Below, one piece after another: positions 4,855 to 24,000 of a stretch of DNA of 24,000 nucleotides (position 1 is its first letter; every line of letters begins with the position of its first letter). A model generated the notes under the pieces. The model saw nothing but the letters and a program-made list of their open reading frames with translations. It made no database searches and had not been told where the DNA came from. The translations under genes and the position numbers were made by a program. Source of the stretch: Planctomycetota bacterium (GTDB lineage: Bacteria > Planctomycetota > UBA1135); contig JAPKEZ010000015.1 in the NCBI GenBank assembly GCA_028821845.1, positions 1-24,000 of the forward strand, written 5' to 3'.

Positions 4855-4860
4855 CGTCGA

Positions 4861-5997
4861 TTAGCGCAACTTAATCAGAAGTAAACCCAAGCTAGCAAAC
4901 AGCGCGGATACTATCCAAAACCTGGCGACGATGCGAGCTTCAGGCATACTGTCAAGCTGCCAAATATGGTGAATGGGTGCTTTCCGAAAAGGACGCCAAT
5001 TGAAATACTTGCAACATAAAATTTGCAGCAAGCTAGAGGCCACTTCAATAGTAAACACCCCGCCGATTAAGATGAGTAGTATTTCTTGTTTTGAGACAAT
5101 CGCAAAATAAGCCATTGCAGCGCCAAGTGGTAGCGACCCGCTGTCACCCATAAAAATTAATGCTGGTGCCGAGTTGAACCACAAGAAACCGAGGCTAGCA
5201 CCGAGAGTAGCAGCGACCAAGACAGTTACCTCGCCCGAGCCTGGGATGAATGGCAAGTGCAAATATTCTGAAAAGTTAGCATGGCCGACGAAGTAAGTGC
5301 TCAAGCCCATTGCAGCCAATACCGGAACAGCTGACCCCACTGCTAGACCATCCAGTCCGTCAGTAACATTAGCTGCGTGACTAAATCCGAGAATGCACAT
5401 TATTTGTATGACGAAGAACACAGCACCTAGTGCTAGCAAGCTCATCCCAGGCCCAATCACCAAATCCTTGAACACCGGCATAAAAATATGTCGCATTTGT
5501 GGGTACGAGCTAGAGGCATCACCTAGCTTCCATAGCAAACCAACGACTAAAAGTGTTAGCAACATCGTCGGGACCATTTTCGCCGTACGCGACAAGCCCT
5601 TACGCGGGTCCTTCGGGTTCGCCTTAACTTGGTCGTCGAAAAAGCCAATGGTGCCCATACCGACCATCAGAAACATTCCGATTAAAACCAACGGCTCATC
5701 GATGCGCCCAAATACCATCGTACTAATCAGCACCGATGCTAACCAAAAGACTCCGCCCATCGTCGGTGTGCCGTCTTTACCAGCCTTACGGTAGGCCTCT
5801 GCGACTTCGTCGCAATCGGAGTTGTCTGTACGCTCGCCAACCTTGCTTTCGCGTAAACGCTCGATAAGGGGCTTGCCTATTATCAAGGCAACGCCAAATG
5901 AAAAAATAAATGCCGCACCCGCTCGCACCCCTATATAGTTAAATGCGCCAAAGGGGCTAAACAAATCAGACAAGAATGGAATTAGCCAGTTAATCAT
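4861..5997 (-). CDS. mraY: Phospho-N-acetylmuramoyl-pentapeptide transferase MraY
   Basis: 378-aa membrane ORF with DGTPTMGG, HAANVTDGLDGLA and MGDSGSLPLG motifs characteristic of MraY. ATGA overlap with the murF stop. Confidence 0.92.
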   Translation of the reverse strand: MINWLIPFLSDLFSPFGAFNYIGVRAGAAFIFSFGVALIIGKPLIERLRESKVGERTDNSDCDEVAEAYRKAGKDGTPTMGGVFWLASVLISTMVFGRIDEPLVLIGMFLMVGMGTIGFFDDQVKANPKDPRKGLSRTAKMVPTMLLTLLVVGLLWKLGDASSSYPQMRHIFMPVFKDLVIGPGMSLLALGAVFFVIQIMCILGFSHAANVTDGLDGLAVGSAVPVLAAMGLSTYFVGHANFSEYLHLPFIPGSGEVTVLVAATLGASLGFLWFNSAPALIFMGDSGSLPLGAAMAYFAIVSKQEILLILIGGVFTIEVASSLLQILCCKYFNWRPFRKAPIHHIWQLDSMPEARIVARFWIVSALFASLGLLLIKLR

Positions 5998-7355: not shown

Positions 7356-8821
7356 TGCACTGCCTCAAGTATTTGTAAGCGATCGTCGAAGGAGTGACGG
7401 ACACCATTGATTTCTTGATATGTCTCGTGGCCTTTGCCTGCCACTATCAACACATCATTTGAGTTAAGTGATTCAACCGCAAAACGAATTGCGTCATCGC
7501 GCTGAACAATACTATGAAAATCGACTGCGTTTTCATCAATGCCCGCGGCAACTTGATTAATAATAGACTCTGGCGATTCCGTGCGTGGATTATCAGAAGT
7601 TAGCACGCACCAATCTGCATTGTCACTAACGGCCCTACCCATAACTTTACGTTTCGCATTGTCTCGATCACCACCGGCGCCGAAAACAACTTTAAGAACG
7701 CGATTAGGGTAACTAGCACGTAAGGCTGTCAACACTTTCGCAATAGCGTCCGGAGTGTGCGCGTAATCGACGAATGCCAAACCTTGATGCACAGTTACTT
7801 GTTCGAGGCGTCCGTCGGCTGCTGGCTGAGATGACAATGCCGAGCACACGTCGCTCATCGACAACCCCTTAGCGAGCATCATCAGCGCCGCTAAGAAAAG
7901 ATTCTCGCCATTATGGTATCCACATATTTCACTATTGATGACACCATGCTGCTGCTGCCAATCAAAAGTAACCTCAACACCATTTACTGATTCTGTAATT
8001 TTGCAAATCACGTCAGCTTGCTGGTCGCGACTTGACCAGCTCATTATTTCGGCCTCTGCAGAACTGCATAAATCAATCAACATCTTTGAGTGTGGCACAA
8101 AAGCGATGGCCGTGGATGGCAAACCGTTGATCAACTGCATTTTTGCTGCCGCATACTTCTCGAGAGTGTGGTGATAATCTAAGTGCTCATGACTTAGATT
8201 AGTGAAAGCGACACAATCGAAATCAACCGCTGCAACACGATGTTGCACGATGCCGTGCGAGCTTGCTTCAACAATTGCCGCTTCACACTGCGCCTCAACC
8301 AATCCGGCCAGCCAACAGTGAACGATATCAGCTGATGGAGTAGTGTTTAAATTTGGCGAGGCGCCATTAAGGTCAATCATGCCAAGAGTGCCACATGAGG
8401 CGGCTTTAATCTCTAGCTGCTGTAAGGCACCACGCAACAAGTGGGCAACAGTAGTTTTACCATTAGTACCGGTGACAGCCGCACACCATATTTCCGAACT
8501 CGGTCGCCCTGCGAGCAAGTCAGCACAGTGCGCAGCAGTCAAAGCTAATTCATCACTAACAACCAGCTGTGGGCAGTTGAATTGCTCGCGAACTTGGTCG
8601 ACCAACAACATAGACGCCTGAGCATCTAAGGCAGATTGAATGAAATCGGCGCCCTGTTGACTATGCCCAGGAATAGCACAAAAAATATCGCCAGGATTCA
8701 CCCGCCGTGAGTCGAAGCATGCGCGCGTCAAATCCATGTCAAGCAACTGGGCTTGAGCTGGTGACAACTGGGGAGATAATCCGCGTTTTTGCAGTGCGTT
8801 GATGAGGTCGGCGACAAGCAT
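7343..8821 (-). CDS. murE: UDP-MurNAc-L-Ala-D-Glu--2,6-diaminopimelate ligase MurE
   Basis: Motifs VTGTNGKTT, DYAHTPDA, GAGGDRD and TSDNPR (the DNPR motif is associated with meso-DAP-adding MurE). The ORF track starts at a TTG (8833). I prefer the ATG at 8821 (MLVADL...), one nt after the ftsI stop. Confidence 0.9.
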   Translation of the reverse strand: MLVADLINALQKRGLSPQLSPAQAQLLDMDLTRACFDSRRVNPGDIFCAIPGHSQQGADFIQSALDAQASMLLVDQVREQFNCPQLVVSDELALTAAHCADLLAGRPSSEIWCAAVTGTNGKTTVAHLLRGALQQLEIKAASCGTLGMIDLNGASPNLNTTPSADIVHCWLAGLVEAQCEAAIVEASSHGIVQHRVAAVDFDCVAFTNLSHEHLDYHHTLEKYAAAKMQLINGLPSTAIAFVPHSKMLIDLCSSAEAEIMSWSSRDQQADVICKITESVNGVEVTFDWQQQHGVINSEICGYHNGENLFLAALMMLAKGLSMSDVCSALSSQPAADGRLEQVTVHQGLAFVDYAHTPDAIAKVLTALRASYPNRVLKVVFGAGGDRDNAKRKVMGRAVSDNADWCVLTSDNPRTESPESIINQVAAGIDENAVDFHSIVQRDDAIRFAVESLNSNDVLIVAGKGHETYQEINGVRHSFDDRLQILEAVQCLA

Positions 8822-8822
8822 G

Positions 8823-10640
8823 TTACTCGTCAAGATTAGCCTTATTAGCCCCTGATTCCAAGTCCGAAGACGGCAATGTTCCGCGCGATTTCAAGGCATA
8901 CTGCAAAATGTTAGCTGCCGCAGGACCGCAAACCTGAGAACCATAATAATGCGCCTTAGTACCGTGGGTACCGAAGGCCACTATCAGCACCAAGACTTCA
9001 GGCTCTTCAAGAGGACCGTAAGCAACGAATAGCGAGGTGTACTTGTCTTTGGCCGGTCCAGAGGTATGCTTCGAAGTACCTGATTTACCGCAGTAATTGA
9101 AATCGTCGCGATGCGGTAGCCACCTGCGGCTTTTGTACATAATCATGTCATGCATTGCATTGCGCACCTTTCCTGCTACACCTTCACTCATAACACGGCC
9201 GACCTCGATCGGCTCTTGCTCAAAATCCAGTTTAGCGCGCAGCAACTTACCACCATTTGCTATCGACGCTAATGCCATGGCATGGTCCATTATTGGTACT
9301 TCAATTTCTCGGCCAAACGACAAGGACGGAATTGTAAAAACCATTCCATCGGGCCCTTTTTTGCGCATGAAGGCTGCACGCTCTGGATACTTACCATCCT
9401 GAAACTGAAGGCTCAAACCCGGCAACTGCTTTGCCTTTTTGGCGTAACCGAAGTGAGGCAAGAAGTCTGCCATTTTTTCACGCCCTACTGCGCGGCCAAT
9501 TTGCGCCATAACAATATTCGATGAATGGACTATGGCATCAGAGTAATTCATAGCTTCGTTGCGGTACTGCGATGAGTTATGAATAACTCTACCAGGTAGG
9601 GAGTAAGCGCCACCCTTATTGCTAAACATTTGTTTCGCAGTGATGGACTTGTTTTCTAACGCCCAAGCTGCAATCAATGGCTTCATGGTCGATCCAGGAC
9701 TAATTCGCTCGAGACCGGGGAAGTTCCAACCATCATACACCTCGTTATTCTGCTTCTCATCGAACACAAGCTTCATGCTGTTTTCCGGGTCATTCAAATC
9801 GTAATCTGGCAATCCCTGCGCGCTCAAGATGTCCCCACTATTCACATCGACCACAATCGCAACACAATGCATTGGGTCATGGTCTTCCATTATCATCACC
9901 AATTGCTCGCGAACGAAACTAGAAATATTTAAATCTAGGGTAGTTCTAATTGACGCGCCTGGCACGGCATCATCTTTCCCAAGGGCAGGGTTTGTTCCGT
10001 GCCCAGGGCCTACCTTGAGTGCTGAACGTCCACCATCAGCCCCCGAGAGTTGCGAGTCCAATCCAGCCTCTAAGCCAAACCGTCCATGACGCTCTTCTCC
10101 ATCCTTCAACAGACCCACCAAGTGGCTCAAAACAGGCCCATTCGGACGAATACGCTTAAAAGACTGCACCAAATTCAAGCCGCTGTACCTCACAGCCTGC
10201 AAGGACTTTTTTATTCTCTCACGATCAAATGGAGCGATATTCGACAGCAATAATTGCGATGGCGATTCATTAACCATTACTGCTTGGTACAACTGCTCAA
10301 CTGACAAGCCAGTAGCTACGGCAACATCACTCAGCCGTTCACGAATATCTTTTTCAGTCCAGATTCCATCATCAAAATTGCTAATGACCGAGCGGTTCCG
10401 GGGAAAGAAGTTAACTACCAAATCCCAGCTGCCACGATCTTCAGCAAGCACTAACCCATGACGATCTAAAATCTGACCGCGCTCCGCCGGTATCACTCGA
10501 TCATATTGAACTTCGCTTAGACTAGTACCAGCAATCCCCTCGTCGACTAATACAAAAAAACTGTAAATGCTTAGCGAGTAAAAAACGGCCAAGATACTAA
10601 GTGGCCACAATGGTTTAAACGCTACTGCCTGTTTACTCAC
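8823..10640 (-). CDS. ftsI: Class B penicillin-binding protein / division transpeptidase FtsI
   Basis: 605-aa ORF. N-terminal TM anchor (LWPLSILAVFYSLSIYSFFVLV) and transpeptidase motifs SPGSTMKP (SxxK), HSSN (SxN) and GKSGTS (KTG-like). GTG start forming a GTGA overlap with the upstream small gene. dcw position. Confidence 0.87.
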   Translation of the reverse strand: MSKQAVAFKPLWPLSILAVFYSLSIYSFFVLVDEGIAGTSLSEVQYDRVIPAERGQILDRHGLVLAEDRGSWDLVVNFFPRNRSVISNFDDGIWTEKDIRERLSDVAVATGLSVEQLYQAVMVNESPSQLLLSNIAPFDRERIKKSLQAVRYSGLNLVQSFKRIRPNGPVLSHLVGLLKDGEERHGRFGLEAGLDSQLSGADGGRSALKVGPGHGTNPALGKDDAVPGASIRTTLDLNISSFVREQLVMIMEDHDPMHCVAIVVDVNSGDILSAQGLPDYDLNDPENSMKLVFDEKQNNEVYDGWNFPGLERISPGSTMKPLIAAWALENKSITAKQMFSNKGGAYSLPGRVIHNSSQYRNEAMNYSDAIVHSSNIVMAQIGRAVGREKMADFLPHFGYAKKAKQLPGLSLQFQDGKYPERAAFMRKKGPDGMVFTIPSLSFGREIEVPIMDHAMALASIANGGKLLRAKLDFEQEPIEVGRVMSEGVAGKVRNAMHDMIMYKSRRWLPHRDDFNYCGKSGTSKHTSGPAKDKYTSLFVAYGPLEEPEVLVLIVAFGTHGTKAHYYGSQVCGPAAANILQYALKSRGTLPSSDLESGANKANLDE

Positions 10641-10879
10641 GAGCGGTTATTATCGTAATCGGCGTTACGCTGCTCATCAAGCAAGCGCTTCATGTTCAAG
10701 GGTGATGTTATTTGATTAAACAGGCTTTCGTTGAAATCAATGCGCTGTTCGCAACGTTCGACGCAACGGCGGCTTTCCTCAATGCGTCCACGAGAGGCCA
10801 TAGCCTCGTTCTCCAAACCTAAGCCGAGTAGCATCTCAGCTACGATGGCTACCAACAGGATGAATGATGATTCGCTCAA
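10637..10879 (-). CDS. FtsL-like small bitopic membrane protein
   Basis: 80-aa ORF in the canonical ftsL slot between rsmH and ftsI. Apparent TTG start 2 nt after the rsmH stop, a single hydrophobic helix (FILLVAIVAEMLLGLGL) followed by a charged helical segment. Assigned by position and architecture only; no sequence motif recognised. Confidence 0.5.
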   Translation of the reverse strand: MSESSFILLVAIVAEMLLGLGLENEAMASRGRIEESRRCVERCEQRIDFNESLFNQITSPLNMKRLLDEQRNADYDNNRS

Positions 10880-10881
10880 AG

Positions 10882-11772
10882 TTAAATTGTTTCTTTAGAC
10901 AAAACGCGCAAGCGTGCGCTACGCGAACGGGTATTTGAGCACACTTCGGCACTGCAAGGCACAATACCTTTCTTATAGACATTCACGAAATCTGAACTTC
11001 GTGCTTCGTTACGAAATGAATTTTTTACTAATCTGTCCTCTAGAGAGTGAAAGCTAATTACGGCCAGTCGCCCGCCGTCAACCAACAGTCGCGGCGCGCA
11101 TTCAAGCAACACGGCTGCTTCATCTAATTCGCGATTTACCGCAATGCGTATGGCCTGAAAGGTGCGTGCAGCAGGATGATGGCCACCCATACCGCGGCTC
11201 ACAGTGCGTTCGACTAGGTCAGCGAGTTGCGTAGTGCGCAATAGTTGTCCAAAGCGACGTTGCTTGATAATCGCATGAGCTATCTTTCTTGCAAAGCGCT
11301 CTTCACCGTACTCGCGCAACCAACTCTCAATCTCATCTTCACTAGCCTCAGCCAACAAAGACGCTGCCGACGCTTTTTGCGTTGTGGAATCCATGCGCAT
11401 ATCTAATGGACCGTCCTGCATGAACGAAAAGCCACGATCACGGTCTTCGATTTGATCGGAAGAAACGCCAAGGTCAGCAAGAATGCCATCTACCTTGCCA
11501 TTTGCAAACTGCTCGACAACAGACTCTATTGACGAAAACGGGGCGTGAACGTAAATGACACGGTCGCCGTACGCTTGCAAGCGGTGTTTAGTGCGGGCGA
11601 TTGCCTGGGCATCACGATCAATGCCAATCACAATGTTATCGGGGTGAGCTTCTAATATTTTTTCGGTGTGCCCTCCACCACCGAGTGTTGCATCGACGAA
11701 AACGCCGCCACGCTCTGCGCGCAACCCTTTAACTGATTCATTTAACAGAACTGGAAGGTGGCGAGTTGACAT
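10882..11772 (-). CDS. rsmH: 16S rRNA (cytosine1402-N4)-methyltransferase RsmH (MraW)
   Basis: Motifs HLPVLLNE, DATLGGGGH, DLGVSSDQI and ISFHSLEDR. The ORF track extends to a GTG at 11817 (GTGA overlap with the mraZ stop). The ATG at 11772 (MSTRHLPVLL) matches the usual RsmH N-terminus better, and either start is possible. Confidence 0.9.
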   Translation of the reverse strand: MSTRHLPVLLNESVKGLRAERGGVFVDATLGGGGHTEKILEAHPDNIVIGIDRDAQAIARTKHRLQAYGDRVIYVHAPFSSIESVVEQFANGKVDGILADLGVSSDQIEDRDRGFSFMQDGPLDMRMDSTTQKASAASLLAEASEDEIESWLREYGEERFARKIAHAIIKQRRFGQLLRTTQLADLVERTVSRGMGGHHPAARTFQAIRIAVNRELDEAAVLLECAPRLLVDGGRLAVISFHSLEDRLVKNSFRNEARSSDFVNVYKKGIVPCSAEVCSNTRSRSARLRVLSKETI

Positions 11773-11813
11773 TAATTCACTTAGTTGTTTGCGGTATTGA
11801 CGGCATAATAAAA

Positions 11814-12290
11814 TCACGAGTTGTTCTCCGTTGGTTGGTAATCAGGACTAGTCATATCGCCAGTCGCGGAATTGAAGTAATCATCTGCCTCGACAAGACC
11901 ACTCTCATATTTATCGCGGCTCCATATTTCGAAATAGCTGAGCGCGCCAACGATCATTGCCTCGCCACTTAAATCGATGCGCGAACGCAACTCTTCTGGC
12001 AACAAAACTCGCCCCTGGGCGTCTACCTTCAACTTGCGCGAGTTAGCACCGAGCGAACGGCGCAGCTTCTTGGCACGCGAAGCATTCTTTTCATTACGCA
12101 AATTAGCCTCAATGTATTTCGCGAACTCACTTGCTGTATATATTTCTAAACAGCCATCTAGCGCGTTAATAACACACTCAAACGATTCACGCTCGTGAGA
12201 GTCATCAATGGCGTCCATGAACCCACGAGGAACAAACACACGACCCTTTTGGTCGATTTTATGTGCGAATTCTCCGTTGAAGTAAGACAT
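11814..12290 (-). CDS. mraZ: Transcriptional regulator MraZ
   Basis: 158-aa ORF with two SpoVT/AbrB-like halves, each carrying the DxxxR-type motif (IDQKGRVFVPRGF and VDAQGRVLLPEELR). First gene of the dcw cluster. Confidence 0.9.
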   Translation of the reverse strand: MSYFNGEFAHKIDQKGRVFVPRGFMDAIDDSHERESFECVINALDGCLEIYTASEFAKYIEANLRNEKNASRAKKLRRSLGANSRKLKVDAQGRVLLPEELRSRIDLSGEAMIVGALSYFEIWSRDKYESGLVEADDYFNSATGDMTSPDYQPTENNS

Positions 12291-12452: not shown

Positions 12453-12953
12453 CTAAATTGGCGGTTCTTTCGTCGGGTCCACCAACTCTGTTAGCTGCCT
12501 ACTCAGCTCAGCACGCCTCTCATCGGTCATTTCGCGCGATTCAACAGCAAAAGTCTTCTTGGTGCGAGTTTTACGCAGCAACATTACTTCTTGCTGGCCC
12601 TTCACCTGAACACGCTCTAGGCGTAATTTTCTGTGCCTGACCAATAGCAGTGACAGCAAATAGCTTAGATCTTTTCGGTCATCACGCTGGTCGTCGAGCA
12701 ATTTCTCAAGCAACGCGAGCAACATGTCAAAATCTAGGCGCAAGGATTGGCGACTTTCATGTTGAGTTGTTCGCCAATAGACAACATCGGCGGCCTCGTC
12801 TCGGCTATCGAAACAGGCTCGGCACAAATCTGCGCGCTGCAAATCTCCATCGATCATGCGCAACAGAGAGAACACATCTTCACCATCGGTGAAGGAGTAA
12901 TCGCAATCGTCACATTGCTTATTGCGCTTTGAATATTGCCAGTCCTTTACCAT
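12453..12953 (-). CDS. Uncharacterised Cys4 zinc-ribbon protein with a helical, charged C-terminal half
   Basis: 166-aa ORF. CDDC...(28 aa)...CRAC arrangement near the N-terminus, then a Leu- and Arg-rich helical region (DLSYLLSLLLVRHRKLRLERV). The start abuts the stop of the upstream gene (12954). I do not recognise the family. Confidence 0.6.
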   Translation of the reverse strand: MVKDWQYSKRNKQCDDCDYSFTDGEDVFSLLRMIDGDLQRADLCRACFDSRDEAADVVYWRTTQHESRQSLRLDFDMLLALLEKLLDDQRDDRKDLSYLLSLLLVRHRKLRLERVQVKGQQEVMLLRKTRTKKTFAVESREMTDERRAELSRQLTELVDPTKEPPI

Positions 12954-13418
12954 TTAACTACCGCGCAAGAACAACTGCGAACTCAAGAATTGCATTAGAA
13001 CGCGTGATTGCCCTTGGTCATCGTTAACCGCTTCCCATTCAGCAGCGCTAGAGTCGAGAGTGTCGTCTCCTTCTATATTACGCTCGGAAATCACACGCGA
13101 GCGAACCGCAATCTTACCATCACTATCAGAGACCCTGAGAATTGCCTTATACCTCATACCTTTATTCCTAAACGGTTGCAAGCGAACTTCCCAGTCAGAA
13201 AAAACCGTGCCCCGCAAGGCATCGGTAGTACCCTTCGGGTACCCTGCCTGAGAAATAGCGTATTCGCAGGCTAACAGCAAATCGCGACGCGGCATAGTAC
13301 CTTCTAGAACGATTTGCTCCCAGCGGCCCTCGCTAGGATCGTCAATTGGCAACTCGGAAGCGCATGACCACGACAGCGAGCAGAGCAGAAGCAACACTAA
13401 TAATTTTTCTGTAATCAT
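12954..13418 (-). CDS. Exported protein of unknown function
   Basis: 154-aa ORF with an N-terminal signal-like segment KLLVLLLLCSLSWSCA|SE (SPase I-like SCA site; not a canonical lipobox). Starts 3 nt after the der stop. No family recognised. Confidence 0.6.
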   Translation of the reverse strand: MITEKLLVLLLLCSLSWSCASELPIDDPSEGRWEQIVLEGTMPRRDLLLACEYAISQAGYPKGTTDALRGTVFSDWEVRLQPFRNKGMRYKAILRVSDSDGKIAVRSRVISERNIEGDDTLDSSAAEWEAVNDDQGQSRVLMQFLSSQLFLRGS

Positions 13419-15559: not shown

Positions 15560-15829
15560 TTAAACGAATTCAGCGTCTACGTCACGCTGTGCTGATGCTG
15601 CTTCTGCGTCGACAGCTGCTTCTTCCTCGCGAACCAACTTAGCTGCCTCTTTAAGCTGCTTTTTAGAAGCTGTTTTGAAAGCAGTGCGAACCTTGCGCAC
15701 GCCTATTGGGTTTTCGCCCTCTACGTAATCTCCGCTTTCGCCCAAGATCTCTAGGCGCTCACGACGAGTGTACACAGAGCGAGCGGTAGACAAACCGCTA
15801 CCAAGGTTTAGTGACTTATGAATTGACAT
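15560..15829 (-). CDS. Small basic protein with an acidic tail (resembles the small basic protein family annotated in Planctomycetes/Verrucomicrobia/Chlamydiae)
   Basis: I use the internal ATG (plus-strand cat at 15827..15829), giving MSIHKSLNLGSGLSTARSVYTRRERLEILGESGDYVEGENPIGVRKVRTAFK... (89 aa). It starts 4 nt after the upstream stop, whereas the longer 111-aa ORF would overlap that gene by 62 nt. The family call comes from memory of MSxxKSL...R.ER N-termini and is unverified. Confidence 0.55.
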   Translation of the reverse strand: MSIHKSLNLGSGLSTARSVYTRRERLEILGESGDYVEGENPIGVRKVRTAFKTASKKQLKEAAKLVREEEAAVDAEAASAQRDVDAEFV

Positions 15830-15833
15830 CGTT

Positions 15834-16331
15834 TTAATTCTTTGGAAGTAGCTTGATTCGCGCATCGCTAAATGGATTCGCGCCACCAAGGCCATCTAAG
15901 TTTAGTGCTTGCAGATTTGCAAGAGTCCCGCTGAGAGCTGCTTCAGACGGCTGGTCACCGACGAAAAGCTTATAATGTGACTCTTCTGAGCCGACACCTA
16001 TCTCTGCAAGAGTCACATTATAGCCCTGACTCTTGAGTTCTGTGCCCAACTTTCTGGCAAGCTCTAAATCTTCTGAATTGAACTCACGGGCTACCACACA
16101 ATAGTGGTAGTTATCGGCCTCTGCGACACCACCGGCAAACTTATATGAAAAGAAGAACACAACAACAGCAGCAAATATCAACACAACAACTTTAGCGCTT
16201 ATTTTTGGTCTAATAGCAGCGTTTGAAGGCACTACATCTATCTTCTGCTGTGAACCAGAGCCCTCCGTGGAACCTTCACGCGTCTCATTGTCGCGTAAAA
16301 TATCCAGTAAATGTCGTTTTTTGGGTGCCAT
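15834..16331 (-). CDS. Bitopic membrane protein with a C-terminal SPOR-like domain (FtsN/DedD-like architecture)
   Basis: 165-aa ORF. Charged N-terminus, one TM helix (VVVLIFAAVVVFFFSY), then YHYCVVAREFNSEDLELARKLGTELKSQGYNVTLAEIGVGSEESHYKLFVGDQPSEAALSGTLANLQAL. This fits the beta-alpha-beta-beta-alpha-beta SPOR pattern (xVQxGAFxxxxNAxxLxxxLxxxGY...YRVxVGPF). Confidence 0.6.
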   Translation of the reverse strand: MAPKKRHLLDILRDNETREGSTEGSGSQQKIDVVPSNAAIRPKISAKVVVLIFAAVVVFFFSYKFAGGVAEADNYHYCVVAREFNSEDLELARKLGTELKSQGYNVTLAEIGVGSEESHYKLFVGDQPSEAALSGTLANLQALNLDGLGGANPFSDARIKLLPKN

Positions 16332-16380: not shown

Positions 16381-16896
16381 ATGACAGATTCCGTCCCCAA
16401 CAATGTGGCTACTGCTGCTACTCACTGCCTTTTAAGCGATTTGGCCGAGGCTGGCCTTAATTTGGCGCCACTATCTCCGGCTGACACTCATATAGATAGT
16501 ACCGGTAAAGCCGAGCCAGTGACAATCATGTTCTTAGGTACCGAAAACAGCCGTGAGGCTAGCGATTTGCTAATCGCCATTGCCGACAAGGGGCTAAACG
16601 TGCCTAAAGACTTTATACACATAAATTTACTGAAGAAGGATGCGCAAACAATTGAATCTACACTCGATGCATACTCCCCACAGCTGATCATCGTTCTTGG
16701 TATAGGAAACGGCATACAACTCTTCCCGAACTATGGTTCTGGCAGCGATATACCTCGTGGCCAGCTGCTGCATTCGAGCTACTGCAGCAATCCGGTCTTG
16801 ATAACCGAATCGCTGAAAGATATGCTGTCCGACCCAGATTCAAAGAAATCCTGTTGGAATGACCTGCAAGCTGCTAAAGAAATCATAAATAATTAG
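16381..16896 (+). CDS. Uracil-DNA-glycosylase-superfamily-like protein with degenerate catalytic motifs
   Basis: 171-aa ORF. IMFLGTENS...LLIAIADKGLNVPKDFIHINLLK...PQLIIVLGIGNG...RGQLL...PVLITESLKDMLSDPDSKKSCWNDL is colinear with family-4 UDG-like proteins (VGEAPG...GL...ItN..K...P..iv.LG...rG......T.HPS.lLR.P..K...W.DL). GEAPG is replaced by GTENS and HPS by ESL. This is pattern recall, not a search result. Confidence 0.45.
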   Translation: MTDSVPNNVATAATHCLLSDLAEAGLNLAPLSPADTHIDSTGKAEPVTIMFLGTENSREASDLLIAIADKGLNVPKDFIHINLLKKDAQTIESTLDAYSPQLIIVLGIGNGIQLFPNYGSGSDIPRGQLLHSSYCSNPVLITESLKDMLSDPDSKKSCWNDLQAAKEIINN

Positions 16897-16916: not shown

Positions 16917-16944
16917 TTGACGCATCACTCCGCATCGGCATAAT
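16917..16944 (+). promoter_or_regulatory. Candidate sigma70-type promoter of the secretin gene
   Basis: TTGACG (16917..16922)-N16-CATAAT (16939..16944), about 60 nt upstream of the ATG at 17004. Confidence 0.4.
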
Positions 16945-17003
16945 CTTTAGTCCTTAGCGGCCGGTGTAACCGTAGCCATTCCATAAACTTGCAATTCATC
17001 CTG

Positions 17004-19568
17004 ATGCATTACAGCAGAAACTATCTGTTACTAACATTACTGACTTTAAGCGCATGCTCAAGCTCAGAACCTACTTACGCTGACTCAAATGCCACTGATA
17101 GTGGTAGCGAGTCTCAGCGCACTGACTCTGAATTACAGCAAGAAGTCGGCGACGCCATGACTGTTCGCTCTCAGCGCAATGCGTTAATGGCTAGCACTCG
17201 TGTCGAATTAGGCAACGACGCATTCGAGCGTGGTGATTTCCAAGGAGCCGCTACCCATTACGCAGCAGCATCGCTACTCGACCCCAGCAACGTCCAGGCT
17301 CGCGACGGATCTCGCCGTTCACAGGCTGCCCTAGATGGCAATGGTTACGACATCGACTCTGCTGAAAACGTTTTGCAAACTGCACAAGCGCGCGTTACTG
17401 CAAATCGAATCCGAATTGAAGGCATTGTTCGCGACGGCGATAGAGCATTGTCACAGGGGCAATACTCGAAGGCAGCCGAGCACTACTTAATCGCAAAGCA
17501 AGCTGTTGATTACAACCCCAACCTAGCTGTTGGCGCTTTAGACGCAAAGATTGTCAATTCAAAATACGAGCAGGCCATTAGTGCGCGTAATAACTCTGAA
17601 TCGGCAGAGCGCGAAGACATGGCCTGGGCAGCCAAAGCAGAAGCAGCAGTTCTCGAAACTGAGCGCATCAACTACCGTGCCAACCTAATCGCCACTCACC
17701 TGTCTGATGCCAACGAGCATTTCTTAAATGGCTTCCCGGAAAAGACAATTGCGACCCTAGATACACTACTACAAATTGACCCTGGTAATGCCAATGCTAT
17801 TGGCTTACGAGCAATCGCGCTTGAATCTGCTCACCAAAATCGTTCGACGCGAACATCATCGCAATTCCGCGAGCAATGGCAGCGCACATTTGAAGATCTA
17901 CGCCATATCGCTATCCCGACTGATTCTCACTTCGCCTTCGATGTCGATTACTACAATGAAGTGGTCGCTAAGCGCAGTTCGCTCGACTCTACGGGCTCAG
18001 TAAGAATAGTAGATGCTACCGCTCTAAGAATCAACGAAAAGCTTGACAACACAATGATCACTCCTTCTTTCGAGAACTCACTCGAAGAGATTGTGCCTAA
18101 CCTAAGTGCTTTTTCGGGAGTAAACTTCTTCATCACACGTGCTGTCCAGGACGACATAGATGAAGACCTGAAAATGATACGCATCAACTTCAAAAACCCG
18201 CTGCCTATTAGCACCGTACTTCGCATCATGGAAGATGTAATGCTTCGCGAGGTTAAGTTTGTTGTGCGTAATGGCGCTGTTTATGTTGTGACAGCCGACG
18301 AGGCTGACACCGAATCAATTACTCGCCAGTACGAAGTTCGCGACATTGTTAACACGATTAAAGATTTCCCTCTGCCTGACTACAACTTGGCGCCTTCAGG
18401 AGGCATCGAGCCAAGCGAAGAGGAGCTACCAGAGTCAGAGGCTACCGTTCTTACTGCCGACGATCTGCAGACCACTATTGAAGAAAGCATCGAGCCAGAT
18501 TCCTGGGACGGCGAGTTACACTCGCTCAGCATCGAAAACGGCACACTAATTGCCCACCACCGCCCAGAAGTTCTTGATGAGATTGCGCAAATGCTCGAAG
18601 ACCTTCGTGCCCCAGCCAACATCATGGTTGATATTAAGGTTCGATTCTTGCTTGTAGAAGATTCATTCTTAGAAGACGTTGGCGTCGATTTCCGTGGCTT
18701 AGGCGACGACGCTACTTCGGGCGTTCCTGGAGATTCTGGCATCATCAACGAAGTATTTAACGACTTCGGTGACTCAACCAACTATGGTTCTCCTGGTGCA
18801 CCAGGCGTTTTGGGTACCGGCCAGGACATTGGCGCTGCGTACTCTGAGTCTGGCGAAGACTTTCTAGTTATCTCACGCACCGAGCAACTTTACGATAACC
18901 AACTTGGTGACGAAGATTTCCAGGCTTCCGGTGGCTTAGCAATGCAGTACGCATGGCTAGACGACGTAGAGCTGCAAATGATTTTGCGTGCCGTCAAGAA
19001 GTCTAAGCGCTCAGAGCTGGTCATTGAGCCTAGTTTGATGGTTCACAATACTGCGCGCGCTAACTTGGTTGTTGCTAATCAGGTTTCTTACATCTCTGAC
19101 TTCGATGTTGAAATCGCATCATCTGCTTCTATCGCAGACCCGATTGTCTCAGTAGCTAACGACGGCGTCTTCCTTGACGTCCGCCCTGTTGTTACCGCCG
19201 ACCGTCGCTTCGTCTGGATTGACGTCCGCCCTACAGTTGCCAAACTGAAGCGACCTATCGCTACCTTGCAAACATCTCTGGGTACTGGTTCGCCTGTTAA
19301 CCTAATGTTGCCAGAGCTAGAGCTACAAAAAGTTCGTACTCGCGCATTGGTGCCAGATGGAGGAACACTGCTGTTGGGCGGCATGAAGACTGTTATAGAA
19401 CAAAGTCTAGAGTCAGGAGTCCCTTTCTTAAGTGATATCCCAATTCTTTCATTCTTCTTCTCCCGCAAAGGATCGTACGAGACTTACCAGAAGTTGCTGA
19501 TTTTGCTTACCGCTAAAATTATTCTTCCAGAGGAGTACGAGCCTGTCCCGATTCCTGACCGCCTGTAA
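17004..19568 (+). CDS. Secretin-family outer-membrane channel, predicted lipoprotein, with an N-terminal TPR-like module
   Basis: C-terminus GGTLLLGGMKTVIEQSLESGVPFLSDIPILSFFFSRKGSYETYQKLLILLTAKII is the secretin signature (VPxLxDIPxLGxLF...L.I.vTp.I). There is an N0-like domain (ITPSFENSLEEIVPNLSAFSGVNFFI...INFKNPLPISTVLRIMEDV...VVRNGAVYVV) and an N1-like domain (ITRQYEVRDI...IENGTLIAHHRPEVLDEIAQMLEDLR). Three TPR-like repeats lie at about nt 17205..17830. The signal peptide has the lipobox LSAC (Cys18 counted from the ATG at 17004). The ORF track begins at a TTG (16989). Confidence 0.85.
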   Translation: MHYSRNYLLLTLLTLSACSSSEPTYADSNATDSGSESQRTDSELQQEVGDAMTVRSQRNALMASTRVELGNDAFERGDFQGAATHYAAASLLDPSNVQARDGSRRSQAALDGNGYDIDSAENVLQTAQARVTANRIRIEGIVRDGDRALSQGQYSKAAEHYLIAKQAVDYNPNLAVGALDAKIVNSKYEQAISARNNSESAEREDMAWAAKAEAAVLETERINYRANLIATHLSDANEHFLNGFPEKTIATLDTLLQIDPGNANAIGLRAIALESAHQNRSTRTSSQFREQWQRTFEDLRHIAIPTDSHFAFDVDYYNEVVAKRSSLDSTGSVRIVDATALRINEKLDNTMITPSFENSLEEIVPNLSAFSGVNFFITRAVQDDIDEDLKMIRINFKNPLPISTVLRIMEDVMLREVKFVVRNGAVYVVTADEADTESITRQYEVRDIVNTIKDFPLPDYNLAPSGGIEPSEEELPESEATVLTADDLQTTIEESIEPDSWDGELHSLSIENGTLIAHHRPEVLDEIAQMLEDLRAPANIMVDIKVRFLLVEDSFLEDVGVDFRGLGDDATSGVPGDSGIINEVFNDFGDSTNYGSPGAPGVLGTGQDIGAAYSESGEDFLVISRTEQLYDNQLGDEDFQASGGLAMQYAWLDDVELQMILRAVKKSKRSELVIEPSLMVHNTARANLVVANQVSYISDFDVEIASSASIADPIVSVANDGVFLDVRPVVTADRRFVWIDVRPTVAKLKRPIATLQTSLGTGSPVNLMLPELELQKVRTRALVPDGGTLLLGGMKTVIEQSLESGVPFLSDIPILSFFFSRKGSYETYQKLLILLTAKIILPEEYEPVPIPDRL

Positions 19569-19588
19569 GAAAACATGAAACTGTGCTG

Positions 19589-19618
19589 CCGGAGACGTCT
19601 ATACGTCTCCGGCTTTTT
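19589..19618 (+). terminator. Rho-independent terminator after the secretin gene
   Basis: Perfect 10-bp stem CCGGAGACGT (19589..19598) / ACGTCTCCGG (19603..19612) with a 4-nt loop, followed by CTTTTT. It begins 21 nt after the stop codon. Confidence 0.75.
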
Positions 19619-19652
19619 CAAAGCCCCCTCTCGAAAACTAATTCTGCTCTAA

Positions 19653-22520
19653 ATGATTACTGGGATTACCCTTTGCCTCATGTTCGCCCTGCCTCAGCAA
19701 GGCGGCTCAGACCTTCTAGCCTCTAAAAACGCTGATGCGGCTCGCGCGATTACAGCCGAGTTTGGTCTCGACTACTGGTCCGGAAAATTGGTCGAGCGCT
19801 CTCTTGCCTCTGCTACATCTGCAGATGGTAAGTCTGATTTGTTACTAGCGCGCTGTGACGTGTTGCGCATGGTTGCCGGCCGTAAGCTTGACGAGCTCGA
19901 GCGTCTCTTCTCCCTTGGCGAAGCAGGTGAAGCTTACTCCGCCTATCTCGATAGTGGACCAAGCTCATCGCGTGCAACAAAAGCGCAATCAAATCTTGGA
20001 ACCTTGGCCTTCATTTACGGCCAAACTTTAGTCCAACTTATCAACAGTGGCGGCATTGGCAGTGTCGACTTGGTTAAAGCAAGCGAGCAAGCCGAGGGAA
20101 TATTCAAGGCAGCATTGTCCGGCATGAACTCTGTAATTTCATGGTGGGAAAATCTCTCTGACGATGATCCTGAGAAAGCTAGCGCCGAATACACTGACTA
20201 CCTACCTTCTGTCTACAACCGAGCGCTCGTCTACCGCTATTGGTCAGAGCTATATGAAAAGGATTCGCTAGACCGTGGCCAAAAGGCTGAAAAGGCGATT
20301 GACCTACTTTCAGAATTTGCTTTGGGAGCACCCTTCTTACCGCAGCAGCGCGCTTACTCAGCCCTTGCCGACTGTTTTGCTGTTATTGGTGAATACGAAG
20401 ATGCTGCCGATTATTATATGTACGTAACTGAGCAAGTTACTGACCTTATCGACCAAGAGGGTAACAACCTAGGACTCAGCTACGTTGCCCAACTTCAAGA
20501 TGCTAGCCAAGAGTCAATGCTCGGCATGGCAAAAATGTACCAACGCAGCAACAACATAGTCAGTTTCTGGGACACCTACAACGACTTCGAAGCCTGGGTA
20601 GCTAATAACGAGGTAGCGGTTAGTCGCATGGGGTACACTCTGCGCCTATCTGCTGCCAGGCAAATGGTTATTGAAGGGCGCTCGGCTGAAGCAATCAACC
20701 TGGCTTCAGCTGTTGCCGCAGCGAACGAACGTAATATGTTGCGGCTACAGGCTAACTCGGTTATGGGTCGCGCTATTTCATTAGCTCCTGCCGACGCCGA
20801 CATTTCACTTGATATCCTTTACAGTTCTGCCGAGGGAGCTTACTTTCAAAAGCGTTTCGCAGACGCTGTCGATGGCTTCCGCTTGCTGGTCCCACGACTA
20901 AACGCGTCAAGTGAAGAAATAGGCGCAAAGGCATACTACTATCTAGGTCTTTCATGGTCGAAACAGAACGAGGCTTTGCTAGCAATGGTGAGTCACCAAG
21001 TTGGTTACCAGAGCTATCCGGAACACGAAGAATTCGCTCTTAAAAATGCTGATAAGTGGCAGAAAGCTGCTGAGAAGCTTTCTATAGATAACCCTAACGA
21101 CGAGATACTTAGAGAATTCAGCAATGAAGCTACGGTGGCAGTGCAGGTCTTGGGCGGAGGCGGAGACAACCTAGAATGGAACCAGGCAAAGCAATTGCTC
21201 AAGCTCGCAAAGTCGTCCGCGCGTGCCGCTAATGGCACCGAGTCAGGAAGCACCGAATCACGTAAAGCAGCTGCGGCGTTCCAACGGGCGATAGAATCGC
21301 TGGGCAAAATCCCTAGTGATAACGGTTACTACGAACTAGCTCTTGTCGCTACCGGCATTGCTGAATACGACGCAAGCGAATTTGACGCAACATCTTCAGC
21401 GCGCTCAACAGCAATCCTCAGTGACTATGTGAATAACTACATCACTGACGAAGCTAATGCCCCGAAAGATCCATTGCAGCGAAAGGTTCGCAAAGACAAA
21501 GAACCCGAAGCTGTGTTCTATCTTGGTTTAGCGCAGCGCCGTGATAGTAATAGCATTGGTGTGCTAAGTAGCTTTGAAGATTTCCTTAATCGCTACCCTT
21601 CGCAGCCATCCCTCGCTTTCGCGACGATGACATACCGCATTGAAGCATTCATACTGCTAAACGACATCAATGGCGCTATAGCTGAATACGAGGCCATGCA
21701 TGAAATAGAAGCTAGTGGCGCTCGTATTGCAATCGGCGCTTACTACATTTATAAGCACTACAATAAGCTTTCGTCTACGGCAGAGGGTGCAATGCCAAGC
21801 CTCGACACTATTAATCTCAGAATGGCGCAAGAAGCAAAGTACCTGCACGATTTTAACTATTACTCTACCTCGCCGCGTTGGCAGAACTTGATTGGCGAAG
21901 CTGATCTACTGAGGAGAATAGGCAACAACGTTGATGCGAGCAAGATGTACGAATTGGTTTTAAACAAGCATTCGTCAGCTAGTGACTTCACCGATGCCTT
22001 CCGCTTTAAAGTTGAAATAGGCTATGTCGAATCCATGCTAGAGCAAGGTCAAATCGGACGCGCTGTAGCGATTATTGACTCACTGCTTGAATCTCGCCCA
22101 AAGAATCTTCGAGTAAAAACAGCTGCCGTGAAAGTGAAGGCCGGCTTCTTGCTTTATGACCCTAGCGAGACTCGACTACGAGATCAAATACGTGTTATTC
22201 CTGGTGAGCTTTCTCCAGAAGCCCTCGCCACAGCTTCGGAACTAGCTAACTCCATTGTGAAGATTGCAACGTTTCAGGCTAATGACTTCGTGGCTGCCGA
22301 CCCCGATAACTCTGGCAACAAGTACTACTACCCCGAATGGTGGGAAGCGCAAGTCACTCAAGCTTTTGTGATGTACCAACGTAACCGAACTAACCCTGCC
22401 GACATGGGCAAGCACATTACATTCGTTAATGCTCTTAGTCTTCAAGCGCCGAATCTGGGCAAAGACGTTGCCGGGCCTCGAGTCGCAGCTTCTCTGAAAT
22501 GGATTTTATCACAGAAATAA
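19653..22520 (+). CDS. Large TPR-like/helical-repeat protein, probably exported
   Basis: 955-aa ORF, Ala/Leu/Tyr-rich and predicted helical. TPR-like segments include GEYEDAADYYMYV, AKAYYYLGLSWSKQNE, EAVFYLGLAQRRD, FEDFLNRYPSQPSLAFATMTYRIEAF and GQIGRAVAIIDSLLESRPKN. Short uncharged hydrophobic N-terminus (MITGITLCLMFALP). An in-frame stop lies immediately upstream of the ATG. Confidence 0.7.
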   Translation: MITGITLCLMFALPQQGGSDLLASKNADAARAITAEFGLDYWSGKLVERSLASATSADGKSDLLLARCDVLRMVAGRKLDELERLFSLGEAGEAYSAYLDSGPSSSRATKAQSNLGTLAFIYGQTLVQLINSGGIGSVDLVKASEQAEGIFKAALSGMNSVISWWENLSDDDPEKASAEYTDYLPSVYNRALVYRYWSELYEKDSLDRGQKAEKAIDLLSEFALGAPFLPQQRAYSALADCFAVIGEYEDAADYYMYVTEQVTDLIDQEGNNLGLSYVAQLQDASQESMLGMAKMYQRSNNIVSFWDTYNDFEAWVANNEVAVSRMGYTLRLSAARQMVIEGRSAEAINLASAVAAANERNMLRLQANSVMGRAISLAPADADISLDILYSSAEGAYFQKRFADAVDGFRLLVPRLNASSEEIGAKAYYYLGLSWSKQNEALLAMVSHQVGYQSYPEHEEFALKNADKWQKAAEKLSIDNPNDEILREFSNEATVAVQVLGGGGDNLEWNQAKQLLKLAKSSARAANGTESGSTESRKAAAAFQRAIESLGKIPSDNGYYELALVATGIAEYDASEFDATSSARSTAILSDYVNNYITDEANAPKDPLQRKVRKDKEPEAVFYLGLAQRRDSNSIGVLSSFEDFLNRYPSQPSLAFATMTYRIEAFILLNDINGAIAEYEAMHEIEASGARIAIGAYYIYKHYNKLSSTAEGAMPSLDTINLRMAQEAKYLHDFNYYSTSPRWQNLIGEADLLRRIGNNVDASKMYELVLNKHSSASDFTDAFRFKVEIGYVESMLEQGQIGRAVAIIDSLLESRPKNLRVKTAAVKVKAGFLLYDPSETRLRDQIRVIPGELSPEALATASELANSIVKIATFQANDFVAADPDNSGNKYYYPEWWEAQVTQAFVMYQRNRTNPADMGKHITFVNALSLQAPNLGKDVAGPRVAASLKWILSQK

Positions 22521-22524
22521 CATC

Positions 22525-23589
22525 ATGATTTTAACCACGATATCATTAGTACTTTTTGCTGCTCAATCACGAGTAGATTTGCTTGATGGCTCAAAAGTTT
22601 TTGGCGAAATTTCCGACATAAACTTAAATGCAGTAACTATTGTTGTTGATGGCTCAGAAGACGCTACTGTCATAGCTAACGAAAACATCCTCGAAGTCGT
22701 TCCGGCGGCAACGGCATTAATGCGCCAAGCTCAAATTTCTCTTGACGCCCTTGACTTCATGAATGCTAGCAATGCTTTTGCCGAAGCTGCTTCTAAGTCA
22801 GAAGACGGTTACATGAAAAAGTTTGCCGAGCTACGCAATGCAGAAACTCTAGTGTCTTGGGCAAAAGTTGACCCCGCGCAATATGGTGCCGCGATCGCTC
22901 TACTCAATTCTTGGGTAAGTGAAAATTCTCGCTCATTCTGGTTACCTCGCGCACAGATGTCATTGGCTCGTGCCTTGGCGAACACTGGCGACATTGACGG
23001 CGCTGCTTCAATGATGGAAGAACTGTCAAATTTAGCTTTCGCCGAGACACTGGCTCGCCACATCGAGATTCAAGCTAACGTTATTCGCTGTGAAGCATTT
23101 CTGATTGGCGGACAAGCTCAGTCTGCGCAAAGTCGCCTTAGTTCTCTCAAGGATACCTTAGGCAGTATGATTCGCAATGCTGAAACACCATCTGCTCTTC
23201 TAAGCAAGGCGCGGGGTCTTCACTCTCAGGTACAAATCCTAAATGGTCAGGCTATTCAAGCCATCGAGGGCGTAAATGCTTCTCAGGCCTACTGGAAAGA
23301 GTTAGCCGATGGCGAGTCAACGAGACCTGTCGTGCGCTCTGCTGCTTGGCTAGGCCTAGCAGAAGCTGCCATTGAAGCAAATGAGCTGCGTTCAGCGCAA
23401 TTACAGTTAGCGAAAATTGTAGCCGTAATGCCAGCTTCACCTAATGTTACACCGCAAGCGCTATATAAATTAGCAGTTGTGAGCGCCTCACTCGAAGACA
23501 CAAAGTCTTCACGTTCGGCAGCCATGCGCCTGACAACTAATTACCCTAACTCAACTTGGGCAATAAAAGCCAACTCTGAAGGTCTATAA
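22525..23589 (+). CDS. TPR-like protein with a small N-terminal beta-rich domain, probably exported
   Basis: 354-aa ORF starting 4 nt after the previous stop. N-terminal hydrophobic segment MILTTISLVLFAAQS, then helical repeats. The C-terminal RSAAMRLTTNYPNSTWAIKA resembles the YPxSxxAxxA ending of CpoB(YbgF)/BamD-type TPR repeats. Confidence 0.65.
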   Translation: MILTTISLVLFAAQSRVDLLDGSKVFGEISDINLNAVTIVVDGSEDATVIANENILEVVPAATALMRQAQISLDALDFMNASNAFAEAASKSEDGYMKKFAELRNAETLVSWAKVDPAQYGAAIALLNSWVSENSRSFWLPRAQMSLARALANTGDIDGAASMMEELSNLAFAETLARHIEIQANVIRCEAFLIGGQAQSAQSRLSSLKDTLGSMIRNAETPSALLSKARGLHSQVQILNGQAIQAIEGVNASQAYWKELADGESTRPVVRSAAWLGLAEAAIEANELRSAQLQLAKIVAVMPASPNVTPQALYKLAVVSASLEDTKSSRSAAMRLTTNYPNSTWAIKANSEGL

Positions 23590-23658
23590 ACCTCATGAGA
23601 TTGCTAGAATCGACACCTCAAACTGCGGCGACTCTCCCGTAAAAAACAAACCATAATC

Positions 23659-24000
23659 ATGTCAAAAGTTCGTAACTTCATCCCAGCTCTAGCTGGCGTA
23701 CTACTAACCGCACCTCAACTGCTTGCAGCAGACGACGGTGGTGCATCCATCATCGACGGCATCAAAAGTGCTGGTATAATTGGTGCCTTCATTATTCTTA
23801 TGTCTGTCGTCGCTATGGCATTGGTAATCGAGCACTTCATGACCATCAAGCGTGACAAGCTAGCTCCAACAGAGCTTTTCGAAGAACTTGAAGAATTGTT
23901 CGCCGACAACAACCACGCAGAAGCAAAAGAACTCTGCGAAGCTGACCCTTGCTACCTGACAAATGTGGTTCGCGAAGGCATCATTAAAATCGGACACCCA
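23659..24000 (+). CDS. MotA/TolQ/ExbB-family proton-channel protein (5' part; continues past the window end)
   Basis: Not in the ORF track because it is open at the window edge. My translation from the ATG at 23659 is MSKVRNFIPALAGVLLTAPQLLAADDGGASIIDGIKSAGIIGAFIILMSVVAMALVIEHFMTIKRDKLAPTELFEELEELFADNNHAEAKELCEADPCYLTNVVREGIIKIGHP. It shows a signal-like N-terminus, a first TM helix, then the ...IE+f..l+r....P..f...l..l...g....A..lC......L..v+..G loop typical of ExbB/TolQ proteins. In frame to the last base. Confidence 0.72.
   Translation, partial: MSKVRNFIPALAGVLLTAPQLLAADDGGASIIDGIKSAGIIGAFIILMSVVAMALVIEHFMTIKRDKLAPTELFEELEELFADNNHAEAKELCEADPCYLTNVVREGIIKIGHP

Follow-up and report, generated by a model that had tools for sequence, protein, structure and literature searches.

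Secretins form the outer-membrane ends of a number of known machines that run on ATPases, these being the type II secretion system (T2SS), the type IV pilus (T4P), Tad, the type III secretion system and the filamentous phage systems. Motors of the 5:2 ExbB/ExbD type are known to drive TonB, TolA, the flagellar stator, Agl-Glt and the type IX secretion system (T9SS), and in the last of these a proton-driven inner-membrane motor of the MotAB/ExbBD superfamily, GldL/GldM (PorL/PorM), powers an outer-membrane translocon. In the Planctomycetota-Verrucomicrobiota-Chlamydiota (PVC) bacteria, 5:2 motors with tetratricopeptide repeat (TPR) partners and non-TonB outputs are known from clusters that consist of a gene for a TPR protein, a tolQ-like gene, two heterologous tolR-like genes and a force transducer of the von Willebrand factor A (vWA) type, and it has been remarked that further 5:2-motor systems await discovery (Mol Biol Evol 2025, PMC12204202). 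TolQ, a pair of TolR subunits and large TPR proteins make up the core of Agl-Glt (PMC3169522). In Acinetobacter and Pseudomonas, T4P function requires TonB homologues, by a mechanism that is unknown (PMC8811193), and in Akkermansia the secretin PilQ/Amuc_1098 is the most abundant outer-membrane protein of the bacterium (PMC4960237). Here we describe a gene cluster that brings a secretin gene together with two TPR genes and a motor gene, located on the plus strand at the right end (16917-24000) of a 24,000-nt stretch of the Planctomycetota contig JAPKEZ010000015.1. This whole stretch is referred to as the window, and coordinates are read on its forward strand. The conservation of the cluster suggests an as yet undescribed envelope machine driven by the proton motive force (PMF).

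The gene order secretin-1, big TPR (955-aa type), TPR (354-aa type), exbB, exbD1, exbD2, secretin-2 was found with zero exceptions among 96 non-redundant loci, all from Planctomycetota metagenomes, where presence was counted only if the flank was long enough. In these testable flanks secretin-1 was present at 37/37 loci, the big TPR gene at 44/44, the smaller TPR gene at 61/61, exbD1 at 74/74, exbD2 at 62/62 and secretin-2 at 29/29. Beyond the reference loci, 80 loci were obtained by scanning metagenome contigs with an alignment of the cluster ExbB and were annotated by profiles from the reference loci. All seven genes are kept in four deep lineages (L025, L026, L027 and L108), which have different outer flanks and 955-aa proteins that are about 20% identical to that of the window or barely detectable by BLAST. 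The arrangement is not due to chance, as it recurs in all 96 non-redundant loci. An earlier note, made from the sequence of the window alone, had proposed that the secretin, the TPR pair and exbB belong together, and the counts for secretin-1 and the two TPR genes show that they do co-occur in conserved synteny; the counter-case, a TPR-TPR-exbB block without a secretin, was sought and never found in the related loci.

Secretin-1 (16989..19568, +; 859 aa) is assigned by a match of residues 668-845 to the Pfam Secretin domain (PF00263; E 7e-25; 88 bits against a cut-off of 27.5), with weak TPR matches at about residues 73-104. A lipobox, LSAC with Cys23, can be read straight from the sequence and marks the protein as a lipoprotein; the ATG at 17004 may be the true start. 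After the lipobox, the chain runs through a disordered linker into a helical TPR domain (about 48-306), continues with two N-type domains of alpha/beta fold (at about 343-450 and 490-555) and ends in the secretin domain. The AlphaFold2 (AF2) model is confident at residues 55-300 and 340-450, while the barrel is poor, with pLDDT values below 40 after residue 540, as is expected because the protein was modelled as a monomer. A fold search with this model returned TPR matches to the N-terminus only, which carry no functional information. The best NCBIfam match is the Amuc_1098 family (2e-25), followed by PilQ, MshL and GspD, all far under the cut-offs: 89 bits versus 750 for NF042912 (Amuc_1098 family, residues 188-706), 78.7 versus 284 for PilQ (TIGR02515), 77.6 versus 250 for MshL (TIGR02519) and 71.8 versus 351 for GspD (TIGR02517), the last for the C-terminal domain only. 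The nearest solved chains are those of T4P PilQ proteins, at 39 bits or less. A sigma-70-like promoter match (TTGACG, 16-nt spacer, CATAAT; 16917..16944, +) is situated 45 nt upstream of the secretin start; it agrees with the consensus at 10/12 positions and is a consensus match only, and the number of promoter-like sites in the region equals that expected from shuffled sequences.

The 955-aa protein (19653..22520, +) carries a signal peptide and is predicted by AF2, with a mean pLDDT of 86, to be a periplasmic, all-helical alpha-solenoid that is interrupted by a lone beta-hairpin at residues 831-850. Foldseek searches with the model retrieved generic TPR superhelices only (Ski3, IFT-A, Ctr9), from which no function is indicated; the TPR lipoprotein SprE of T9SS is among the fold matches. 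A HMMER search delimited a family of 343 cluster representatives (50% identity, E<1e-3), nearly all of 950-1010 aa, and the named members are almost all from Planctomycetota metagenome-assembled genomes (MAGs). The 955-aa protein is the marker protein of the cluster. As for the naming of relatives, L010 / L002 (JBLINB010000004.1), with an 83% identical secretin, was deposited as "Myxococcota bacterium" while every other relative with a name is from Planctomycetota; the MAG was probably mis-binned or mislabelled. The 354-aa protein (22525..23589, +) begins 4 nt after the 955-aa open reading frame (ORF), matches Pfam TPR_19 and TPR_14, and is predicted to be periplasmic, with a signal peptide, a small beta-rich N-terminal domain and TPR repeats. 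Its C-terminus reads ...YPNSTWAIKANSEGL and holds the CpoB/YbgF-like motif YPNSTWAIKA; the match to the YbgF/CpoB model TIGR02795 is weak (4.9e-9, 36.8 bits versus a cut-off of 90.1), and the 955-aa protein reaches 29 bits against the same cut-off.

An ExbB/TolQ-type proton-channel gene follows after 69 nt and is cut by the window edge, leaving a 5' part of 114 codons (23659..24000, +) whose product is predicted to carry a cleavable signal peptide. The 114-aa fragment by itself gave no Pfam match. It shares 91% identity with the N-terminal 114 residues of a 234-aa protein of the relative L024, which matches MotA_ExbB (PF01618; 3.5e-27; 95.1 bits versus a threshold of 22.9), and the reading of the truncated ORF as ExbB-type is borne out by this identity. 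The best NCBIfam match of the L024 protein is to tolQ (TIGR02796; 1.2e-20; 74.3 versus 221 bits), with exbB (TIGR02797) at 60.5 versus 206 bits, both under the cut-offs. Every coordinate and motif quoted in the earlier note was checked against the sequence and was correct; the positions of the secretin, the two TPR genes and the truncated ExbB agree with the ORFs, and the CpoB/YbgF-like end of the 354-aa protein was confirmed, with the weak TIGR02795 match given above.

The genes past position 24000 were taken from the relatives L024, L013 and L009, which have about 90% protein identity and are colinear with the window. In these, exbB is followed by exbD1 (209 aa), exbD2 (175 aa) and a second secretin (867 aa), and beyond this by an oppositely oriented hydrolase of the haloacid dehalogenase (HAD) family and an ATP-binding cassette (ABC) ATPase. 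The transmembrane Asp (TPMID) is retained in ExbD1 as well as in ExbD2. The best score of ExbD2 is that against TolR, at 33.4 versus a cut-off of 127 bits. ExbD1 is 199-209 aa long in most of the wider clade of the window and 154-180 aa in L007 and the deep lineages, the gap corresponding to about 50 residues inserted into the periplasmic domain (L024, 14679-15308, versus L025, 15528-15992, and L026, 14788-15270); the longer form occurs in lineages without the PilM-like trio described below. The L024 secretin-2 has 81.4 bits for the Pfam Secretin domain and 102.6 versus 250 bits for MshL. It can be aligned with secretin-1 from end to end at 30% identity; like secretin-1 it is a lipoprotein with a lipobox, and its N-terminus is helical.

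The two secretins form mirror-image subtrees. In a neighbour-joining tree, secretin-1 and secretin-2 sequences separate into clean clades with the same internal branching order, and therefore the duplication predates the divergence of these lineages, with both copies retained and co-inherited ever since. The cluster is ancient and vertically inherited, and has been found so far in uncultured Planctomycetota only. In support of a single apparatus are the gene content and domains, the invariant co-occurrence, the ancient co-inherited duplication and the tight spacing of the big-TPR/TPR pair, of exbB-exbD-exbD and, at some loci, of exbD2 and secretin-2. That the products form one integrated, vertically inherited envelope apparatus is in our view the likeliest reading, at about even odds.

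The complete cluster reads: a PilM-like gene with two membrane protein genes (optional), secretin-1, 955-aa TPR, 354-aa TPR, ExbB, ExbD1, ExbD2, a sulfatase or a pyridoxal phosphate (PLP)-dependent decarboxylase (optional), secretin-2. The window covers its first four and a half genes, from a lineage in which both the insert and the PilM-like trio have been lost or moved. In a single apparatus, the motor would be an ExbB pentamer combined with an ExbD1/ExbD2 heterodimer and would turn the PMF into motion of the periplasmic part of ExbD, the two soluble TPR proteins would serve as adaptors in the periplasm, and the secretin pair, through its periplasmic TPR and N domains, would form the outer-membrane end. 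The motor might then drive secretin assembly, gating or the passage of material. An action of the proton motor upon the secretins by way of ExbD and TPR adaptors is a tentative proposal, which we regard as rather doubtful as it stands; the physical complex, the heterodimeric ExbD, the nature and direction of the cargo and the energetic coupling are what we infer. The most far-reaching version, which is on balance unlikely, is a new class of trans-envelope machine where secretins are powered or gated by a 5:2 ExbB-ExbD1/ExbD2 motor via TPR adaptors, instead of or besides a cytoplasmic ATPase. Such a machine could allow proton-driven export or the import of macromolecules (polysaccharide, DNA) across the outer membrane, and the paralogous secretins might form a hetero-oligomeric or paired channel.

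The spacing of several of the genes resembles that of an operon. The gap between the big TPR gene and the TPR gene has a median of 4 nt (68 loci) and is 4 nt in the window, which suggests that the 955-aa and 354-aa genes are translationally coupled. Median gaps are 11 nt for exbD1-exbD2, 67 nt for exbB-exbD1, 92 nt for secretin-1-big TPR and 117 nt for TPR-exbB. Directly 3' of the secretin-1 stop codon is a G+C-rich hairpin followed by a T run (19588..19618, +), with a stem at 19588..19613 of 11 bp, including 8 G-C pairs, and then TTTTT. This strong terminator-like structure had been noticed before and is confirmed; it is also family-wide, as a hairpin occupies the secretin-1/big-TPR junction in 98% of 42 unique related loci, with stems that differ in sequence while the position is constant. 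Its median minimum free energy is -33 kcal/mol and its median z is -3.65, compared to a z of -0.67 for the tpr-to-exbB junction. A clear T run after the hairpin is found in the clade of the window only. The hairpin could be an intrinsic terminator, an attenuator or a 3' stabiliser, and would set the level of secretin-1 above that of the downstream genes. As the hairpin is family-wide, secretin-1 may be, at least partly, its own transcription unit.

The junction between exbD2 and secretin-2 is variable. The slot is empty in the clade of the window, and in L027 the gap amounts to 18 nt according to the gene coordinates. A PLP-dependent decarboxylase gene lies in the slot at 11/29 testable loci, with median gaps of 21 nt from exbD2 and 39 nt to secretin-2, and a sulfatase-family gene fills it in the three deepest lineages (L025, L026 and L108). 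These inserts look co-transcribed with the motor genes because of their tight spacing, 0-40 nt from exbD2. Examples of the decarboxylase are found in L003 (18689-20260), L005 (18635-20161) and L007 (5958-7493), with L-2,4-diaminobutyrate decarboxylase as the best match, under the cut-off; the sulfatase-family proteins have a long C-terminal extension (L025, 17067-18932; L026, 15751-17898; L108, 16055-17995).

A link to type IV pili is visible outside the clade of the window. In L025, L026 and L108, three genes are located between a uracil-DNA glycosylase (UDG)-family gene and secretin-1. The first encodes a PilM-like protein of 507-570 aa with a C-terminal transmembrane extension, which matches Pfam PilM_2 (3e-11), the NCBIfam Amuc_1101 family (4.6e-31; 108 bits versus a cut-off of 650) and pilM (TIGR01175; 7.5e-22); the other two encode membrane-anchored proteins of about 270 and 360 aa that match no family. 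The order of this trio and secretin-1 resembles that of the pilM-N-O-P-Q operon and of the Akkermansia cluster from Amuc_1101 to Amuc_1098. As the trio directly precedes it, secretin-1 is best described as a PVC-type PilQ-like secretin. The trio is missing near the cluster in the window and its clade, this lineage having lost or relocated it. The statement of the earlier note that T4P partners are absent therefore holds for the window, where no ATPase, platform or pilin genes of T2SS, T4P or Tad were found, and fails for the family as a whole, where the PilM-like trio precedes secretin-1 in three deep relatives. No ATPase (PilB/GspE), platform, prepilin peptidase or (pseudo)pilin gene was found within 10 kb of the cluster at the inspected loci, in which genes had been called and given Pfam marks; pilQ and pilMNOPQ operons of type IVa pili normally lie apart from the ATPase, platform and pilin genes.

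These findings fit an alternative in which two independent systems have been kept side by side by inherited synteny: the secretins would be PilQ-type secretins of a T4P- or T2SS-like machine that has its ATPase, platform and pilins elsewhere, and TPR-TPR-ExbB-ExbD-ExbD would be a separate force module, Tol-like or of the PVC type, with its output protein elsewhere. We consider this explanation quite possible, if short of probable, and several observations favour it or weigh against a motor coupled to the secretins. The PilM-like genes beside secretin-1 in the deep lineages are consistent with an ordinary T4P role, and the best family matches of both secretins are to Amuc_1098, PilQ and MshL. 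The strong conserved hairpin lies between secretin-1 and the TPR genes, and secretin-2 is preceded by a wide gap of variable length (median 360 nt when nothing is inserted) that can be occupied by unrelated enzymes. No transducer with a TonB/TolA-like transmembrane helix was found in the clusters, and TPR-tolQ-tolR-tolR modules with other outputs have been reported in PVC bacteria (PMC12204202). Unrelated flanking genes are equally conserved, a UDG-family gene preceding the cluster at 31/33 testable loci and a HAD-family hydrolase gene following secretin-2 at 27/27, and synteny alone is therefore no proof of coupling; gene order in this lineage may be slow to change. In addition, the loci all belong to a single lineage, and the probes by which they were collected were family-specific ExbB motifs or the 955-aa protein.

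Against two independent systems, neither module is lost or displaced at any of the 96 loci, even though the outer flanks and the exbD2-secretin-2 insert vary. The motor block is located between the two paralogous secretins in every lineage, and in some lineages exbD2 and secretin-2 are 18-60 nt apart or bridged by tightly spaced genes. Also against this alternative, no TonB-, TolA- or vWA-type transducer lies next to the motor at any locus.

The earlier note had allowed that the right-hand genes may simply be a Tol-Pal- or TonB-like system next to an orphan secretin. This is not borne out, as exbD-exbD-secretin-2 follow in close relatives. No tolA, tolB, pal/OmpA-like, tonB or TonB-dependent receptor gene was detected in or beside any cluster inspected, nor any TonB_C or TonB-dependent receptor domain among the cluster neighbours; a standard Tol-Pal or TonB set is therefore ruled out, and was rejected also on account of equivalog scores far under the cut-offs. 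A looser relationship is conceivable, where the cluster is a Tol-Pal analogue whose motor and CpoB-like TPR proteins serve to maintain the outer membrane or to constrict it, and where the liposecretins or their TPR domains replace Pal and TolB as the anchor. The best scores of ExbB against TolQ (TIGR02796, 1.2e-20) and of ExbD2 against TolR point in this direction, as do the weak YbgF/CpoB matches of both TPR proteins, the position of the cluster beside the division and cell wall (dcw) genes in the clade of the window, the view that TPR lipoproteins of the CpoB type are ancestral parts of Tol-Pal (PMC12204202), and the abundance of the Akkermansia TPR-secretin in the outer membrane (PMC4960237). 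We nevertheless regard such an analogue as improbable. All of the Tol matches are far under the curated cut-offs, no locus has a TolA, TolB or Pal/OmpA-like gene, the dcw neighbourhood is missing in the deep lineages, and Pfam detected no peptidoglycan-binding domain in either secretin.

Upstream of the cluster, the left 16 kb of the window consist of housekeeping genes, all on the minus strand. The dcw cluster (744-12290) comprises murC, murG, a LysM protein, ftsW, mraY, murF, murE, ftsI, a small FtsL-like ORF, mraW and mraZ, and beyond it are two unknown ORFs, der/engA and a queE-like radical-SAM gene. The LysM-domain protein (217 aa) is encoded between ftsW and murG. No murD-like ligase gene was found in its usual place between mraY and ftsW; the one further Mur ligase in view (744-2078) scores highest for murC, under the cut-off. 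No ftsQ, ftsA or ftsZ was found in the window; as the dcw cluster heads towards the window start, these possibly lie beyond the edge. The two conserved ORFs between mraZ and der (12453-13418, -; 166 and 154 aa) gave no Pfam or NCBIfam match and are syntenic across all relatives of the clade, and the 154-aa ORF has a lipoprotein-like signal, LSWSC. Closer to the secretin, the minus-strand ORFs 15560-15895 and 15834-16331 overlap by 62 nt as listed; the former (111 aa) probably has an internal start, being called at 89-97 aa in relatives, and the latter (165 aa) contains a transmembrane segment and gave a weak match of SPOR type (E 0.0025). The pair is kept beside the cluster in the wider clade. 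Prepilin motifs are absent from the small unknown ORFs upstream of the secretin, and Rfam and tRNA scans of the window gave no matches.

The gene just upstream of secretin-1 is a 171-aa ORF (16381-16896, +) that represents a truncated remnant of the UDG family (PF03167). It matches only the C-terminal half of UDG homologues of 234-290 aa that stand in its place in other lineages (profile E 9e-9), and the N-terminal part seems to have been lost in the clade of the window. Such a remnant raises the possibility that the neighbouring secretin is also a relic, an orphan or decaying gene with no working neighbour, whose partners (the PilM-like trio, the sulfatase) have been lost, and both the trio and the insert of the deep lineages are indeed missing in this clade. 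It is very unlikely that this is the case, as secretin-1 is intact and shows 54-93% identity within the clade, where hundreds of its positions are invariant, and all of the cluster genes are intact in the window and its close relatives. At the other end of the cluster, the HAD gene varies in strand (L024, 18633-19364, -; L027, 19264-19995, +), and in L027 its first 4 nt overlap with the end of the secretin-2 gene. Either the UDG and HAD genes are a functional part of the block, or gene order is unusually stable here.

If a secretin does serve as the output of a proton motor, two fields would be joined and a new way across the outer membrane would be added. It would bear on macromolecule exchange in Planctomycetota, which have few classical porins and TonB receptors, on the role of abundant PVC TPR-secretins such as that of the Akkermansia Amuc_1098 cluster, and on why TonB homologues affect T4P function in proteobacteria. 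Even when read conservatively, a well-defined and strictly conserved seven-gene set is a concrete target for planctomycete genetics, given a cultured carrier. Literature searches found no published description of a secretin-ExbBD cluster and, for crateriform structures and secretin, only unrelated papers; secretin, TonB and ExbB are not mentioned by Boedeker et al. 2017.

Among described systems, Akkermansia muciniphila Amuc_1098, the best NCBIfam match of secretin-1, shares its architecture of an N-terminal TPR and a C-terminal secretin domain within about 860-910 aa (PMC4960237), and in the deep relatives an Amuc_1101-type PilM-like protein and two further genes precede the secretin as in the Amuc_1098-1102 cluster. 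The present family differs in that its scores are far under the cut-offs for Amuc_1098 and Amuc_1101 (89 versus 750 and 108 versus 650 bits), and the clade of the window has no PilM-like genes nearby; nothing that we found on the Akkermansia cluster reports a second, paralogous secretin or a TPR-TPR-ExbB-ExbD-ExbD block. A link between pili and motors of the TonB type is also reported for P. aeruginosa (TonB3) and A. baumannii (TonB2), where a TonB-type energy system is tied to T4P assembly, twitching or transformation (PMC8811193); those genes include TonB and are not clustered with pilQ, whereas here the motor lies between two secretin genes and there is no TonB.

With respect to the motor, the PVC vWA clusters are similar in having a TPR gene, a single TolQ/ExbB-like gene and two TolR/ExbD-like genes that differ from each other, with no canonical TonB or TolA. 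They differ from the present cluster, in which there is no vWA or SHLS-motif transducer but a second, very large TPR protein and two secretins; after exbD2, where no vWA domain was reported, we find a sulfatase, a PLP decarboxylase or a secretin. Tol-Pal (TolQ-TolR-TolA-TolB-Pal-CpoB) shares the TolQ/TolR-type motor, the CpoB-like TPR motifs and, in the window, the adjoining cell-division genes, but here TolA, TolB and Pal are absent, there are two TolR paralogues, and the matches are under the equivalog cut-offs. The Agl-Glt machinery of Myxococcus (AglR, AglQ, AglS; GltD, GltE, GltC) resembles the cluster in composition only, with one TolQ-like and two TolR-like proteins together with a very large and a smaller exported TPR protein, and both link to outer-membrane proteins (PMC3169522); the outer-membrane partners are secretins in place of the Glt beta-barrels, there is no GltG-like (TonB-like) transducer, and gliding is not indicated. 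With T9SS the likeness is one of concept, motor-driven outer-membrane passage across the periplasm, while T9SS uses other motor proteins and another translocon (SprA in place of a secretin), and we claim no homology beyond the superfamily. The cluster thus has parts in common with each of the nearest published systems and, by the tests run, is a member of none; it brings together known kinds of parts in a new combination, with a real, though unproven, chance that this combination is a new kind of machine.

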